4,923 bases of DNA from a virus (lineage: Duplodnaviria; Heunggongvirae; Uroviricota; Caudoviricetes; Peduoviridae), in the IMG/VR virus record IMGVR_UViG_2531839583_000014; one strand, given 5' to 3'. Numbering within the stretch: the stretch's first letter is position 1; each line of letters opens with the position of its first letter. Below the pieces are notes generated by a model. The model made no database searches and had not been told where the DNA came from. It was given only the letters and a program-made list of their open reading frames with translations. The position numbers and the translations under genes were made by a program. Positions 1-4,923 of this stretch are shown one piece after another.

Positions 1-585
1 TTATAACGTCACTCCGCCTTTTAGTGGATTCAGAGCGACGGCATTTTGCAGGTAGTCAGGCGCAAGGTGCGCATAGGCCATCGTCTGCTGAATGCTCGCA
101 TGTCCCAGAATCTGTTGCAGTGCGATTATATTGCCCCCATTCATCATGAAATGGCTTGCGAATGTATGCCGCAGGATGTGGGTTGCCTGATTGGGTGGTA
201 TATCAGGTTTCACTCTGCGTAAAATCCCGCAAAATTTCTCATAATCAACTTTGAATAATTTGGCGCTGGCCTCCTCTTTAACTTTTTTCTCCAGTTCCTC
301 AGAAATCGGCACGGTTCGCTTTTTACCGTTTTTGGTTTTCAGGAAGGTAACCCTGCAATTTGTAATCTGTGCTGGTTTTAGCGTGGCAACTTCCGTCCAT
401 CTTCCTCCAGTGCTCAGACATAAAAGCGCGACAAGTAAGTCATCACCAGCCAAAACATTTAACAGTTTTTCGATTTCTGCTTTTTCCAGGAACGTCATTT
501 CAGGGTTGGCCTCCGCCAGTGGCGGCAGTCCGTGAATTGGGTGTTGCCCGGAAAATTCATCCAATTGAATTAATTTTGTGAACAT
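1..585 (-). CDS. int: Tyrosine recombinase / phage integrase of the P2-HP1-186 family, catalytic domain only (N-terminally truncated, probable pseudogene fragment)
   Basis: The translation carries the tyrosine-recombinase catalytic motifs: box I Arg in LSTGGRWTEV, box II HILRHTFASHFMMNGGNI, and LGHASIQQTMAYAHL with the nucleophilic Tyr. The 194 aa from the first ATG (583..585) is well short of the roughly 340 aa typical of this family. The frame stays open upstream to the stop at 718..720 with no further ATG/GTG/TTG, so the arm-binding and core-binding N-terminal domains are missing. Stop codon is at 1..3. Confidence 0.75.
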   Translation of the reverse strand: MFTKLIQLDEFSGQHPIHGLPPLAEANPEMTFLEKAEIEKLLNVLAGDDLLVALLCLSTGGRWTEVATLKPAQITNCRVTFLKTKNGKKRTVPISEELEKKVKEEASAKLFKVDYEKFCGILRRVKPDIPPNQATHILRHTFASHFMMNGGNIIALQQILGHASIQQTMAYAHLAPDYLQNAVALNPLKGGVTL

Positions 586-669
586 GCCGGATACAGCTAT
601 CAGGGCGTTGCAAAGTCCGTCACGCTGCCAAAACTGACCCGTAAGCTCGAAAACTATCGCGGTGCGGGG

Positions 670-1062
670 ATGAACGGCAGCGCACCGGTAGACCTCGGCC
701 TTGATGACGATGCGCTGTCAATGGAGTGGTCGCTCGGGGGCTTCCCGGATTCGGTTATCTGGGAGCTTTACGCCGCAACCGGTGTGGATGCCGTACCGAT
801 TCGTTTTGCTGGCTCTTACCAGCGCGACGATACCGGCGAAACGGTGGCCGTCGAAGTGGTCATGCGTGGCCGTCAGAAAGAAATCGACACCGGCGAGGGT
901 AAACAGGGAGAAGACACCGAGTCGAAAATCTCCGTGGTCTGCACTTATTTCCGGCTGACGATGGACGGTAAGGAGCTGGTCGAAATCGACACTATCAACA
1001 TGATTGAGAAGGTGAACGGCGTCGACCGGCTGGAGCAACACCGCCGCAATATCGGCCTGTGA
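670..1062 (+). CDS. FII: Phage major tail tube protein FII, probably 5'-truncated (ATG at 670 is an internal Met; frame open back to 574)
   Basis: 130-aa ORF ending ...VDRLEQHRRNIGL. The same frame is open upstream to the stop at 571..573 and encodes ...GVAKSVTLPKLTRKLENYRGAG before the Met, which I recognise as a tail-tube motif. P2 FII is about 172 aa, so at least about 10 N-terminal codons are missing, and more if the junction with int-derived sequence lies further right. A GGGG run sits just upstream of the 670 ATG. Confidence 0.7.
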   Translation: MNGSAPVDLGLDDDALSMEWSLGGFPDSVIWELYAATGVDAVPIRFAGSYQRDDTGETVAVEVVMRGRQKEIDTGEGKQGEDTESKISVVCTYFRLTMDGKELVEIDTINMIEKVNGVDRLEQHRRNIGL

Positions 1063-1069
1063 TTTTCAT

Positions 1070-1090
1070 CCGGTCAGCCAGGCTGACCGG
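1070..1090. repeat. Perfect 10-bp inverted repeat CCGGTCAGCC-a-GGCTGACCGG in the FII-E intergenic region (potential RNA stem-loop)
   Basis: 1070..1079 is the exact reverse complement of 1081..1090, 8 nt after the FII stop codon and 29 nt before the E start. It is not followed by a U-run. Confidence 0.5.
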
Positions 1091-1118
1091 TTAACCCCGA
1101 TTCAGAAGTGAGAAAACC

Positions 1119-1394
1119 ATGAACAAAGAAAATGTGATTACCCTGGAAAATCCGGTCAAACGTGGTGAGCAGGTTATCGAACAGGTCACGCTGATGAAAC
1201 CCAGTGCCGGGACACTGCGCGGTGTCAGTCTGGCTGCGGTCGCGAACTCCGAAGTCGATGCACTGATTAAGGTGCTGCCGCGCATGACGGCACCGATGCT
1301 GACCGAGCAGGAAGTCGCCGCGCTGGAACTGCCTGACCTTGTGGCGCTGGCCGGTAAGGTGGTCGGTTTTTTGTCGCCGAACTCGGTGCAGTGA
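1119..1394 (+). CDS. E: Phage tail assembly chaperone E (P2 gpE)
   Basis: 91-aa ORF, the same length as P2 gpE. It sits between the tube and tape-measure genes and contains the TTTTTTG slippery heptamer near its 3' end. Stop TGA at 1392..1394. Confidence 0.85.
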   Translation: MNKENVITLENPVKRGEQVIEQVTLMKPSAGTLRGVSLAAVANSEVDALIKVLPRMTAPMLTEQEVAALELPDLVALAGKVVGFLSPNSVQ

Positions 1395-1546
1395 CGTTTC
1401 CAAAAAATCTCTCGGTCGATGACCTGATGGCGGATGTGGCAGTGATATTTCACTGGCCGCCATCAGAACTGTATCCCATGAGCCTGACCGAACTCATCAC
1501 ATGGCGCGAAAAGGCGCTCCGGCGAAGCGGAAACACGAATGAGTAA
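1119..1546 (+). CDS. E': E+E' tail chaperone fusion made by programmed -1 ribosomal frameshift (shift at 1367..1373)
   Basis: After a -1 slip on T_TTT_TTG, the -1 frame is open from 1373 to the TAA at 1544..1546 and encodes VAELGAVTFPKNLSVDDLMADVAVIFHWPPSELYPMSLTELITWREKALRRSGNTNE. The predicted fusion is 85 + 57 = 142 aa, the size of P2 E+E'. Its end overlaps the T start codon. Confidence 0.7.
1367..1373 (+). other. Slippery heptanucleotide T_TTT_TTG for the -1 programmed frameshift of E into E'
   Basis: Heptamer in X_XXY_YYZ register relative to the E frame (codons TTT 1368..1370, TTG 1371..1373), located 7 codons before the E stop with an open -1 frame downstream. It matches the motif described for the P2 tail operon. 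Confidence 0.7.
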
Positions 1547-2966
1547 CAATGTAAAATTACAGGTATTGCTCAGGGCTGTTGACCAGGCATCCCGCCCGTT
1601 TAAATCCATCCGCACAGCGAGTAAGTCGCTGTCGGGGGAAAGCCGTGCCGTGTTAAGTCGCCTGCAGGCACCGACGGGAAAAGCATGGGATGCACTCAAA
1701 GAGCTTGGCGTGAAAACCTCAGACAGTAAGGGGAATACCCGACCAGTATTTACCATTCTGAAAGAAATGCAGGCCAGTTTTGAGAAAAACCGGCTCGGTA
1801 CTGCCCAGCAGGCTGAATACATGAAAACCATTTTCGGGGAGGAGGCCAGCTCAGCCGCCGCCGTGCTGATGACTGCCGCCTCAACCGGAAAGCTGGACAA
1901 ACTGACCGCTGCGTTTAAAGCCTCAGACGGGAAGACCGCCGAGCTGGTAAATATCATGCAGGACAACCTCGGCGGTGACTTTAAGGAGTTTCAGTCCGCT
2001 TATGAGGCGGTGGGGACAGACCTGTTTGACCAGCAGGAAGGCGCGCTGCGTAAGCTCACACAGACGGCCACAAAGTATGTGTTAAAACTCGACGGCTGGA
2101 TACAGAAAAACAAATCACTGGCGTCAACCATTGGCCTCATTGCCGGTGGCGCGCTGGCGCTTACTGGCATCATCGGTGCAATTGGTCTTGTTGCCTGGCC
2201 GGTTATCACTGGCATCAATGCCATCATCGCGGCAGCAGGCGCAATGGGGGCAATCTTCACGACGGTTGGCAGTGCTGTTATGACGGCCATCGGGGCGATT
2301 AGCTGGCCGGTTGTGGCCGTGGTGGCCGCCATTGTCGCCGGGGCGTTGCTTATCCGTAAATACTGGGAGCCTGTCAGCACATTCTTTGGCGGTGTGATGG
2401 AAGGGCTGAAAGCGGCATTTGCGCCGGTGGGGGAACTGTTCACGCCACTTAAGCCGGTGTTTGACTGGCTGGGCGAAAAGTTACAGGCCGCGTGGCAGTG
2501 GTTTAAAAACCTGATTGCCCCGGTCAAAGCCACCCAGGACACCCTGAACCGTTGCCGTGATACTGGCGTCATGTTCGGGCAGGCACTGGCTGACGCGCTG
2601 ATGCTGCCGCTTAATGCGTTCAACAAACTGCGCAGCGGAATTGACTGGGTACTGGAAAAACTCGGTGTTATCAACAAAGAGTCAGACACACTTGACCAGA
2701 CCGCCGCCAGAACTCAAGCCGCCACGTATGGCAGCGGTGGTTATATTCCGGCGACCAGCTCTTATGCAGGCTATCAGGCTTATCAGCCGGTCACGGCACC
2801 GGCTGGCCGCTCTTATGTGGACCAGAGTAAAAACGAATATCACATCAGCCTGACCGGTGGTACTGCGCCGGGGACACAGCTTGACCGCCAGTTACAGGAT
2901 GCGCTCGAAAAATACGAGCGGGATAAACGTGCGCGCGCCCGTGCCAGCATGATGCATGACGGTTAA
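1539..2966 (+). CDS. T: Phage tail tape-measure protein T, unusually short (475 aa; likely internally deleted)
   Basis: Sits between E/E' and U as in P2. Contains a tape-measure-like segment (RPVFTILKEMQASFEKNRLGTAQQAEYMKTIFGEEASSAAAVLM) and a long Gly/Ala-rich hydrophobic stretch (LASTIGLIAGGALALTGIIGAIGLVAWPVITGINAIIAAAGAMGAIF...) typical of tape-measure proteins. P2 gpT is about 815 aa as I recall, so roughly 340 aa are missing. Stop TAA at 2964..2966. Confidence 0.85.
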   Translation: MSNNVKLQVLLRAVDQASRPFKSIRTASKSLSGESRAVLSRLQAPTGKAWDALKELGVKTSDSKGNTRPVFTILKEMQASFEKNRLGTAQQAEYMKTIFGEEASSAAAVLMTAASTGKLDKLTAAFKASDGKTAELVNIMQDNLGGDFKEFQSAYEAVGTDLFDQQEGALRKLTQTATKYVLKLDGWIQKNKSLASTIGLIAGGALALTGIIGAIGLVAWPVITGINAIIAAAGAMGAIFTTVGSAVMTAIGAISWPVVAVVAAIVAGALLIRKYWEPVSTFFGGVMEGLKAAFAPVGELFTPLKPVFDWLGEKLQAAWQWFKNLIAPVKATQDTLNRCRDTGVMFGQALADALMLPLNAFNKLRSGIDWVLEKLGVINKESDTLDQTAARTQAATYGSGGYIPATSSYAGYQAYQPVTAPAGRSYVDQSKNEYHISLTGGTAPGTQLDRQLQDALEKYERDKRARARASMMHDG

Positions 2967-2971
2967 GGAGG
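2965..2971 (+). promoter_or_regulatory. Shine-Dalgarno sequence AAGGAGG for U
   Basis: Near-consensus AAGGAGG lying 9 nt upstream of the U ATG at 2981 and overlapping the T stop codon. Confidence 0.6.
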
Positions 2972-2980
2972 TGACGAAAA

Positions 2981-3460
2981 ATGATGCTCGCGTTAGGTAT
3001 GTTTGTTTTTATGCGCCAGACGCTGCCACACCAGACCATGCAGCGTGAATCAGATTATCGCTGGCCGTCAAATTCCCGTATCGGTAAACGGGATGCCTTT
3101 CAGTTTCTCGGTGTGGGTGAGGAAAACATCACGCTTGCCGGTGTGCTTTATCCAGAACTGACCGGCGGCAAGCTGACGATGACCACGCTCAGGCTGATGG
3201 CAGAGGAAGGCCGGGCGTGGCCGTTGCTGGATGGCACCGGCATGATTTACGGCATGTATGTCATCAGCAGGGTGAGTGAAACAGGGAGTATTTTCTTTGC
3301 AGACGGCACACCCCGAAAAATTGATTTTACGCTGTCGCTCACCCGCGTTGATGAATCACTGGCCGCGCTTTATGGCGATATCGGTAAACAGGCGGAATCG
3401 CTCATCGGTAAGGCTGGCAGTATGGCGACTAAATTCACGGGTATGACGGGGGCGGGATAA
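2981..3460 (+). CDS. U: Phage tail protein U (P2 gpU)
   Basis: 159-aa ORF, the same length as P2 gpU, preceded by a strong RBS. Its stop overlaps the D start (TAATG), as expected for translational coupling in the P2 tail operon. Confidence 0.85.
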   Translation: MMLALGMFVFMRQTLPHQTMQRESDYRWPSNSRIGKRDAFQFLGVGEENITLAGVLYPELTGGKLTMTTLRLMAEEGRAWPLLDGTGMIYGMYVISRVSETGSIFFADGTPRKIDFTLSLTRVDESLAALYGDIGKQAESLIGKAGSMATKFTGMTGAG

Positions 3461-4623
3461 TGCTGGATGCACTGACATTTGATGCAGGCAGTACGCTGAC
3501 GCCGGATTACATGCTGATGCTCGACAGCAGGGATATTACCGGCAATATCAGCGACCGTCTGATGAGCATGACCCTGACGGATAACCGGGGCTTTGAGGCT
3601 GACCAGCTTGATATTGAACTGAACGATGCCGACGGGCAGGTCGGGCTGCCGGTTCGTGGCGCTGTCCTGACGGTGTATATCGGCTGGGAAGGGTTTGCCC
3701 TGGTATGCAAAGGGAAATTTACCGTTGATGAGGTTGAACACCGGGGCGCGCCAGATGTGGTCACCATCCGCGCCCGGAGTGCAGATTTTCGCGGGACGCT
3801 CAATTCCCGCCGTGAAGGCTCCTGGCATGACACCACGCTCGGTGCGATTGTTAAGGCGATAGCCACCCGTAACAGGCTGGAAGCCAGTGTCGCTCCGTCA
3901 CTGGCCGGAATAAAAATTCCACACATCGACCAGTCGCAGGAGTCTGATGCGAAATTCCTGACCCGTCTTGCAGAACGCAACGGCGGTGAGGTGTCGGTAA
4001 AAATGGGAAAACTGTTGTTTCTCAAAGCGGGGCAGGGAGTGACGGCCGGCGGTAAAAAAATCCCGCAGGTCACCATAACCCGCAGCGACGGCGACCGCCA
4101 TCATTTTGCGATTGCTGACCGTGGAGCCTACACCGGTGTAACGGCAAAATGGCTACACACTAAAGACCCGAAGCCGCAAAAGCAGAAGGTAAAACTGAAA
4201 CGCAAAAAGAAAGAGAAACACCTGCGCGCACTGGAGCACCCGAAAGCGAAACCGGTCAGGCAGAAGAAAGCGCCTAAAGTACCGGAAGCGCGTGAAGGTG
4301 AATACATGGCCGGTGAGGCTGACAACGTTTTTGCCCTGACCACGGTATATGCCACGAAAGCGCAGGCCATGCGCGCCGCTCAGGCGAAGTGGGATAAACT
4401 GCAACGGGGCGTTGCGGAGTTCTCCATCAGCCTGGCTACCGGTCGGGCAGATATTTACACGGAAACACCGGTCAAAGTGTCAGGCTTTAAGCGCGTCATA
4501 GACGAGCAGGACTGGACAATCACTAAGGTGACACATTTTCTGAATAATAGCGGCTTCACGACGTCCTTGGAGCTTGAGGTCAGGCTTTCTGATGTGGAGT
4601 ACGAAACAGAAGATGAAGAATGA
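3460..4623 (+). CDS. D: Phage tail protein D (P2 gpD, Phage_GPD family)
   Basis: 387-aa ORF, the same length as P2 gpD, lying directly between U and ogr. Contains a lysine-rich basic segment (KDPKPQKQKVKLKRKKKEKHLRALEHPKAKPVRQKKAPKV) and an acidic C-terminus (EYETEDEE). Confidence 0.85.
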   Translation: MLDALTFDAGSTLTPDYMLMLDSRDITGNISDRLMSMTLTDNRGFEADQLDIELNDADGQVGLPVRGAVLTVYIGWEGFALVCKGKFTVDEVEHRGAPDVVTIRARSADFRGTLNSRREGSWHDTTLGAIVKAIATRNRLEASVAPSLAGIKIPHIDQSQESDAKFLTRLAERNGGEVSVKMGKLLFLKAGQGVTAGGKKIPQVTITRSDGDRHHFAIADRGAYTGVTAKWLHTKDPKPQKQKVKLKRKKKEKHLRALEHPKAKPVRQKKAPKVPEAREGEYMAGEADNVFALTTVYATKAQAMRAAQAKWDKLQRGVAEFSISLATGRADIYTETPVKVSGFKRVIDEQDWTITKVTHFLNNSGFTTSLELEVRLSDVEYETEDEE

Positions 4624-4641
4624 TGTGTTTTATTTATCTGT

Positions 4642-4670
4642 TTGTTTTGTAAGGATAAATTAACTAAAAT
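4642..4670 (+). promoter_or_regulatory. Candidate sigma70 promoter for ogr (-35 TTGTTT 4642..4647, 17-nt spacer, -10 TAAAAT 4665..4670)
   Basis: AT-rich intergenic region between the D stop (4623) and the ogr ATG (4705). Hexamers were picked by eye; the -35 is weak (3 of 6) and the -10 is 5 of 6. Confidence 0.25.
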
Positions 4671-4704
4671 GGCACCATCAACAAAACCGGAAGAGGTGCT
4701 CGCG

Positions 4705-4923
4705 ATGTTTCATTGTCCTTTATGCCAGCATGCCGCACATGCGCGTACAAGTCGCTATATCACTGACACGACAAAAGAGCGTTATCACCAGTGTCAGAAC
4801 GTGAATTGCAGCGCCACGTTCATCACCTATGAGTCGGTACAGAGATACATCGTGAAGCCGGGAGAAGTCCACGCCGTAAGGCCGCACCCGTTGCCGTCAG
4901 GGCAGCAAATTATGTGGATGTGA
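4705..4923 (+). CDS. ogr: Ogr, zinc-finger late transcription activator (P2 Ogr / E. coli OgrK-like)
   Basis: 72-aa product MFHCPLCQHAAHARTSRYITDTTKERYHQCQNVNCSATFITYESVQRYIVKPGEVHAVRPHPLPSGQQIMWM with a CxxC...CxxxxC zinc-binding arrangement. This matches the Ogr/OgrK sequence as I recall it. The ORF-track start at 4642 is a TTG codon that would add 21 residues; I prefer the ATG at 4705. Confidence 0.9.
   Translation: MFHCPLCQHAAHARTSRYITDTTKERYHQCQNVNCSATFITYESVQRYIVKPGEVHAVRPHPLPSGQQIMWM

Follow-up and report, generated by a model that had tools for sequence, protein, structure and literature searches.

The tape-measure gene studied here is gene T of phage P2 with 340 codons deleted in frame, and it lies in what is left of a P2-like prophage in the chromosome of one Escherichia coli lineage. 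The map of this deletion, its genomic context and its distribution were observed directly. Taken as a whole, the explanation that the shortened gene, called T' below, is a deleted copy of P2 gene T, devoid of function and sitting in the stump of a decayed prophage, is in our judgement very probable. T' is presumably neither expressed nor functional, and its reading frame would have been preserved by chance, for which the null expectation is a prior of 1/3. It represents an ordinary case of prophage decay, not a novel type of phage tail. It belongs to a kind of element that is already known, a cryptic P2 remnant carrying a truncated member of the P2 gpT/TP901-type family.

Content and chromosomal site of the prophage stump

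The window, that is the whole stretch of 4,923 nt that was analysed, matches contig AQEH01000121.1 of E. coli 180050 with 100% identity; E. coli 300081 and several metagenome contigs differ from it at 3 positions. The list of open reading frames and the comparison with phage P2 give the gene order int' followed by FII'-E-E'-T'-U-D-ogr (Table 1). The int' fragment is annotated by PGAP in strain 300081 as an incomplete tyrosine recombinase with a missing N-terminus, and 592 of its 593 nt are identical to the complete int gene of the P15-25 remnant, which occupies the same chromosomal site. T' lies directly downstream of the E/E' chaperone pair, in the −1 frameshift layout annotated in P2, and E' ends 8 nt inside T, the same as in P2. 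The minus-strand open reading frames that run across the T junction, for example 1463-1966 (167 aa), were treated as shadows of the conserved T frame, and the search for RNA genes with Rfam gave nothing above the gathering thresholds.

Table 1. Coordinates of the prophage genes, deletion junctions and protein segments in the window
Feature	Position	Strand	Basis or remark
int', 3' part of a P2-type integrase gene, about codons 130-326 of 326	1..593	-	194-aa ORF
int'-FII' junction, int at about codon 130 of 326 joined to FII codon 15	588..594 (about 591-594)		
FII', tail tube gene without its first 14 codons; ORFs from 625 or 670	588..1062	+	PF04985
E, tail assembly chaperone, intact, 91 aa	1119..1394	+	PF10109
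Slippery TTTTTTG (1367-1373) and E' extension via −1 frameshift	1367..1546	+	PF06528, P2 E+E' annotation
T', tape-measure gene with in-frame 340-codon deletion, 475 aa versus 815	1539..2966	+	comparison with P2 and homologues
T' left arm, P2 T nt 1-101, gpT residues 1-33 and two bases of codon 34	1539..1639	+	
T' deletion junction, GTCGGGGGA joined to AAGCCG	1639..1640	+	single best breakpoint
T' right arm, P2 T nt 1122-2448, gpT residues 375-815 and stop codon	1640..2966	+	
Residual C-terminal half of the TP901-type core	1641..2165	+	TIGR01760; PF10145 part within, aa 36-100
Long hydrophobic Gly/Ala/Ile-rich gpT segment, retained, aa 193-276 of T'	2115..2366	+	Kyte-Doolittle
U, tail protein, intact, 159 aa	2981..3460	+	PF06995
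D, late control/tail protein, intact, 387 aa	3460..4623	+	PF05954
ogr, late transcription activator, intact, 72 aa; its stop codon ends the window	4705..4923	+	PF04606

Between cpxP and fieF, the stump contains no head, lysis, replication, baseplate, fibre or sheath (FI) gene. P_F, the late promoter that depends on Ogr, is annotated upstream of FI in P2; this region falls within the large deletion between int and FII, and the promoter is therefore absent as well. The stump does not possess the gene set and the P_F promoter of a functional P2-like prophage (Peduovirus). Because all these genes and P_F are absent, T' cannot build a tail here, and this is in agreement with the first-pass annotation of the sequence, which had preferred decay to a working short-tail gene.

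The stump is flanked by cpxA-cpxR-cpxP on one side and by fieF-pfkA on the other, and the arrangement cpxP, stump, fieF was found in every locus that reaches the flanks, including three long loci. The cpxP-fieF interval is a documented insertion site for P2-like phages, as exemplified by prophage Wphi1 of E. coli W (PMC3032704). In strain 300081, both int and T had already been marked as incomplete pseudogenes by PGAP/RefSeq. SNPs are as dense in the stump as in the chromosome around it (3 in 4.9 kb against 12 in about 16.5 kb). Truncated phage genes, chromosomal flanks, a known insertion site and inheritance with the host lineage together characterize a cryptic remnant or pseudogene, and the allele, passed on vertically, marks a single E. 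coli lineage.

The deletion inside gene T

In P2, gene T (NC_001895, 19850-22297) encodes the 815-aa protein gpT (NP_046782). BLASTN and direct comparison showed that nt 1-101 of T' correspond to nt 1-101 of P2 T, and nt 102-1428 of T' to nt 1122-2448; exactly 1020 nt, that is 340 codons or 41.7% of the protein, are missing in one clean in-frame deletion. The first-pass annotation had described the open reading frame as about 40% shorter than P2 T, consistent with an in-frame internal deletion, and had guessed that the junction lay at 1635-1650. The loss is indeed in frame, and a breakpoint scan against the full-length genes L004 and L010 gave a single best breakpoint inside that range, between nt 101 and 102 of T or positions 1639 and 1640 of the window. 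The alignment with gpT and other tape measures, proposed at the same time as a check, maps the missing segment to gpT residues 35-374. Codon 34 of T' is a hybrid, made of GA from the left arm and A from the right arm, which changes GAT to GAA (D34E). The protein thus reads MSNNVKLQVLLRAVDQASRPFKSIRTASKSLSG-E-SRAVLSRLQAPTGK..., corresponding to gpT 1-33, the hybrid codon 34 and gpT 375-815.

We compared T' with five full-length homologues, namely those of P2, the pig ETEC remnant, the CFSAN051542 prophage and two contigs encoding P0002, a protein that is among the best matches. The mismatches with these homologues amount to 0-1 in the 101 nt of the left arm and 19-51 in the 1327 nt of the right arm. 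In L004, the closest full-length gene found, the mismatches are so few (0/101 in the left arm and 19/1327 in the right arm) that the alignment is unambiguous and cannot be put down to chance resemblance. The sequences flanking the breakpoint are identical in all five homologues, …GTCGGGGGA being followed by TATCC… on one side and …GGGGACGGG by AAGCC… on the other. In none of the five is there any in-register microhomology at the junction (zero shared bases). The short direct repeats that had been suggested as a feature to look for at the junction flanks are absent from these five genes, and the sole similarity is GGGA, one base out of register. Pairing at this motif would have led to an out-of-frame deletion of 1021 nt. 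The T deletion, with the junction string AAGTCGCTGTCGGGGGAAAGCCGTGCCGTGTT, looks like the product of blunt illegitimate recombination.

Several family profiles indicate what was lost and what was kept. In P2 gpT, weak coiled-coil matches (SMC/Rad50-like) cover residues about 17-190, TIGR01760 (the TP901-family core) covers residues 199-549 and PF10145 residues 239-440, and the protein matches both profiles end to end (positions 2-348 of TIGR01760 and 1-201 of PF10145). T' still passes the curated family cut-offs for a tape measure of the TP901 family, with 164.9 bits for TIGR01760 (cut-off 28.8) and 37.1 bits for PF10145 (cut-off 33.2), but its core is incomplete: the matches extend over profile positions 178-348 of 349 and 139-201 of 201, respectively. 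The earlier description, in which a P2-like N-terminus leads almost directly into the end of the core domain, is therefore accurate, since gpT 1-33 is followed by gpT 375-815 and only the ends of PF10145 and TIGR01760 are present. On the basis of these matches, the deletion takes the whole of the predicted N-terminal coiled-coil region and the first half of the predicted TP901-type core. The extreme N-terminus, the hydrophobic segment (called by Kyte-Doolittle with a 19-residue window and values above 1.6) and the C-terminus were spared. T' is recognized as gene T by its identity and synteny, and it is not collinear with gpT over the ~815 aa of an intact orthologue.

Two distinct deletions and the status of T'

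At the int'-FII' junction (TTTTGTGAACATGCCGGATACAGCTATCAGGG), the two sequences share an exact microhomology of 2 nt, TA, within an imperfect repeat (CGGATA versus CGGCTA). This junction and that of T are separated by 1,052 nt of collinear P2-like sequence, comprising FII', E, E' and the start of T, and for this reason the two deletions must be regarded as distinct events; the view of the T lesion as a second, separate decay event, put forward in the first-pass annotation, is thereby upheld. We propose the following scenario. A P2-like prophage would have integrated between cpxP and fieF in the E. coli lineage that includes 180050, 300081 and their relatives, and would then have decayed. A single illegitimate recombination event would have cut 1020 nt (codons 35-374) out of T, so that GTCGGGGGA was joined to AAGCCG, and a separate, much larger deletion would have fused the middle of int to codon 15 of FII, taking with it the regulatory, replication, head, lysis, baseplate, fibre and sheath genes together with P_F. 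The remainder would be a stump of ~5 kb; its T' frame is open yet would have no function, and it is inherited vertically with the chromosome.

One can ask in which order the two deletions occurred. The T deletion might have come first, in a prophage or phage that was still complete and became a short-tail or tail-less mutant, with the int-FII deletion following later; it may even have been the first inactivating lesion itself. T genes with smaller in-frame deletions are present in prophages with a seemingly complete late region (P0001), and the preservation of the frame would matter only as long as the downstream genes U and D were still used. We hold this order to be less likely than not. No genome was seen with one junction and without the other among the complete E. 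coli genomes, the protein-bearing loci and the exact-pattern scans. A 161-nt probe spanning the T junction matched end to end in one of 5,426 complete E. coli genomes, strain 300081. The int'-FII' junction was likewise found in 1/5,426, again strain 300081, so that both junctions occur together in the single complete genome having either. The exact-pattern scan of the JGI metagenomes found neither of them. A T deletion that came first would alter only the history of the stump, leaving the present status of T' unchanged.

A different possibility is that T' is expressed and acts in trans, in which case it might poison tail assembly when P2-like phages superinfect the cell, or be a donor allele in recombination events. 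We consider such a retained function quite improbable. It is true that the genes left in the stump (E, E+E' with its slippery site, T', U, D and ogr) contain no stops and no frameshifts, that ogr was kept, and that the stump recurs in several isolates and metagenome assemblies belonging to the lineage; in addition, rhaT is called intact in the carrier locus L006, and is split or frameshifted in L005, L007 and strain 300081. The intact stump genes count against a long-neutral remnant, which might show such lesions. Recency explains them just as well, since the window-specific substitutions are few (12 synonymous and 6 non-synonymous) and show no significant difference (Fisher p = 0.10) from the 104 and 20 pooled over five relatives that are intact. 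A fairly recent remnant is thus the simplest reading. Neither the substitution counts nor the comparison of SNP density with the flanks gave a signal of selection or of long neutral decay. Several observations speak against a retained function. P_F is deleted, and no sigma-70-like promoter is predicted in the window upstream of FII'-E-T'; the sole sigma-70-like site of the window lies at 3434-3461, which is no more than expected by chance. The allele is confined to one lineage (1/5,426 complete genomes). Finally, there is no excess conservation, the SNP density of the stump being that of the flanking chromosome.

Upstream of the stump on the same strand lies cpxP, a strongly inducible gene, and transcription may nonetheless reach T' by read-through from it. 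In the tape measure of TP901-1, deletions within the N-terminal 154 residues abolish infectivity (PMC5099701). By analogy, T', in which the deletion starts at residue 35, would probably not work even if the phage were complete. That T' could be an expressed "mini tape measure", interfering with or shortening the tails of superinfecting P2-like phages, is very improbable; read-through from the envelope-stress-induced cpxP, or recombination into an incoming phage, might provide the route. If this were true, the stump would be a decoy or exclusion element and not pure junk. The tail of P2 is roughly 135 nm long, and if T' worked as a ruler, 475/815 of this length would give a tail of about 79 nm.

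According to another interpretation, the open reading frame would be an intact member of a functional P2-like clade that normally has a tape measure of ~475 aa. In its favour there is only that the frame is open, that its start and stop are the authentic ones, and that it still overlaps E' by 8 nt. The distribution of gene T makes this interpretation extremely unlikely. The best 120 protein matches in a collection of 5.8 billion proteins are all 757-820 aa long, and no clade with a protein of ~475 aa was found. The phage records that cover the whole T' query, from 96% identity (P2 and its relatives) to 40% (Erwinia phage ENT90), all match it in two pieces, which span about 2430-2463 nt, and every phage matching both ends of the query carries the missing segment, with a T protein of about 810-820 aa. 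None of the 73 matching phage records contains the 161-nt junction probe end to end, and the exact 32-nt junction string is absent from IMG/VR and the JGI metagenomes. The breakpoint also cuts through the middle of a conserved core domain. In 1,566 complete E. coli genomes, at least 80% of the length of the right arm of T is present. The exact 475-aa protein was retrieved from 23 contigs (public records EMW83701.1 and ESL31482.1), of which five places were shown and the rest reported as similar, all with the same neighbouring stump genes. A functional clade with a collinear T of ~475 aa had been named beforehand as the finding that would overturn decay; none was found, in phages or in prophages, and the decay reading stands.

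The idea that the deletion is an assembly artefact, i.e. a mis-assembly or collapse within T, is virtually negligible, for the identical junction is present in independent assemblies from varied sources and assemblers (NCBI isolates 180050 and 300081, the latter a chromosome-level record, ENA metagenome assemblies and Logan contigs), and T contains no collapse-prone repeat, with zero in-register bases shared at the junction.

Relation to known systems and to other length variants of T

The residues retained in T' are 95.5-96.5% identical to gpT of P2 and its Peduovirus orthologues (95.5% to P2 itself), and 98-99% identical, over the aligned part, to the T copies of E. coli prophages. T' keeps the start, the stop, the 8-nt E' overlap and the FII-E-E'-T-U-D-ogr order of P2. 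It differs from P2 by the absence of residues 35-374 and by D34E, and the stump is devoid of FI and the other morphogenetic genes. Remnants of this sort have long been known in E. coli. The "ogr-D'" remnant at cyaR of K-12 is likewise a cryptic, deletion-derived P2 stump and, judging by its name, keeps less than the present one (FII' to ogr, and int'). Wphi1 of E. coli W is a complete P2-like prophage at cpxP-fieF, whereas the stump found there keeps the attR-proximal end (the D, ogr side). Compared with the K-12 remnant and Wphi1, the distinctive feature of the present stump is its second, internal in-frame deletion. The remnant of pig ETEC O139:H1 (P15-25, ETEC6333/6334) is located at the same cpxP-fieF site and its int is 99.8% identical. 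It is an independent deletion stump, which likewise keeps the end of the tail operon, but its own large deletion runs from cox to just upstream of FI, and it retains int, C, cox', FI, FII, E, a full-length T (815 aa), U, D and ogr, with int, C, FI and FII all complete.

Engineered or selected in-frame deletions within tape-measure genes are reportedly also found in lambda gpH, where tail length is said to scale with the number of remaining residues. Mycobacteriophage TM4 is another system with such in-frame deletions. The tape measure of TP901-1 offers a similar case of in-frame loss of a large internal block, and there too tail length scales with the remaining tape-measure residues (PMC5099701). 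The mutants of these three phages were tested in complete phages, whereas T' sits in a dead prophage that makes no tail.

Smaller length variants of T were observed in sampled proteins from E. coli prophages. These comprise in-frame deletions of residues 124-181, 326-353, 184-203, 179-183 and 154-155 and an insertion of 5 aa after residue 178; the list leaves aside one deletion of a single residue and one extension at the C-terminus. All of these variants (2 to 58 residues deleted, 5 inserted) fall within residues 124-353, inside the block that was lost here. The protein lacking residues 124-181 (P0001, 757 aa, GCA_037980705.1) is encoded by a prophage at cpxP-fieF that carries lysis genes, R, S, V, W, J, I, H, G, FI, FII, E, T, U, D and ogr. 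The position of the variants fits the idea that the N-terminal half of gpT is the length-tolerant "ruler" part of the protein, and the small variants are candidate natural tail-length variants. As for T', its value lies mainly in annotation: it documents a cleanly mapped, stepwise prophage decay through two independent deletions, one of them in frame within T. The protein EMW83701.1, listed in GenBank simply as a TP901-family tape measure, is better read as the product of a pseudogene.

The deletion joining int and FII

The large event that killed the prophage is the deletion that fuses int, read on the minus strand and broken at about codon 130 of 326, to codon 15 of FII. The two ends share 2 nt of exact microhomology (TA), which lie within an imperfect repeat matching at five of six positions (CGGATA versus CGGCTA). 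Of the 5,426 complete genomes of E. coli, a single one, that of strain 300081, carries the junction.

The copy in strain 180050, which is that of the window, differs from the other five copies of the lineage at three positions only, one in FII' and two in D. Since the two changes in D are spaced by 5 nt, a single origin is possible, and they may derive from one multi-nucleotide event or from a small conversion tract.

Genes for rhamnose utilization lie near the stump, outside the window. In strain 300081 (locus L002), rhaB is interrupted by an internal stop and rhaT by a frameshift. Moreover, rhaT is split at two other loci carrying the stump, L005 and L007, and is called intact at a third, L006; the decay of the rhamnose genes is therefore uneven within the lineage.

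Positions of the features discussed
Feature	Reference	Position	Detail
int-FII junction	window	588-594	
Substitution, FII'	window	993	T, C in the others; synonymous
Substitution, D	window	3688	G, A in the others; E77K
Substitution, D	window	3693	G, T in the others; synonymous
T' start, RefSeq	window	1641	
rhaB and rhaT	L002	1475-2944 and 4987-6020	
Pig ETEC stump (L003)	NZ_CP080233.1	3001-11282	
757-aa T (L012)	GCA_037980705.1, ABROUY010000027.1	10001-12274	
T deletions	T residues	124-181, 326-353, 184-203, 179-183, 154-155	
T insertion	T residues	after 178	5 aa

A second stump at the cpxP-fieF site

Pig ETEC O139:H1 strains carry a P2-like stump (L003; also search hits H43 and H44) that is independent of the window stump, although it occupies the same cpxP-fieF site. 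Its gene order is int, C and cox', then, across the break, FI, FII, E, E', a full-length T, U, D and ogr. The large deletion is a different one, and the attR-proximal tail operon was kept in both. When the two were compared, the int fragment of the window (1-593) was 99.8% identical to the int of L003, with one mismatch in 593 nt, whereas the tail genes (588-4921) reached only about 97-97.7% identity. The two parts of the window, int and the tail genes, seem to have separate histories (mosaicism).

Annotation and length variation of T

The annotation of T' (window 1539-2966) is inconsistent between databases. In GenBank the 475-aa product (EMW83701.1) bears the ordinary name 'phage tail tape measure protein, TP901 family, core region', whereas in RefSeq PGAP calls the same gene (ACU5TT_RS22225) a pseudogene 'missing N-terminus'. 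Despite this call, the gene keeps its authentic first 33 codons, joined in frame to the rest.

Small natural in-frame indels occur in other T genes of E. coli prophages (proteins P0001/P0046, P0031, P0039, P0042, P0065 and P0108). Because all of them fall in residues 124-353, a range within the block missing from T', they suggest that the N-terminal half of T is length-tolerant. At the L012 locus, a T of 757 aa lacks residues 124-181, with about 5 nt of microhomology at the deletion junction. This gene belongs to a P2-like prophage that shares the cpxP-fieF site with the window stump and whose late region looks complete (lysis genes, R, S, V, W, J, I, H, G, FI, FII, E, T, U, D and ogr). The 757-aa T is a candidate for a natural short-tail variant.
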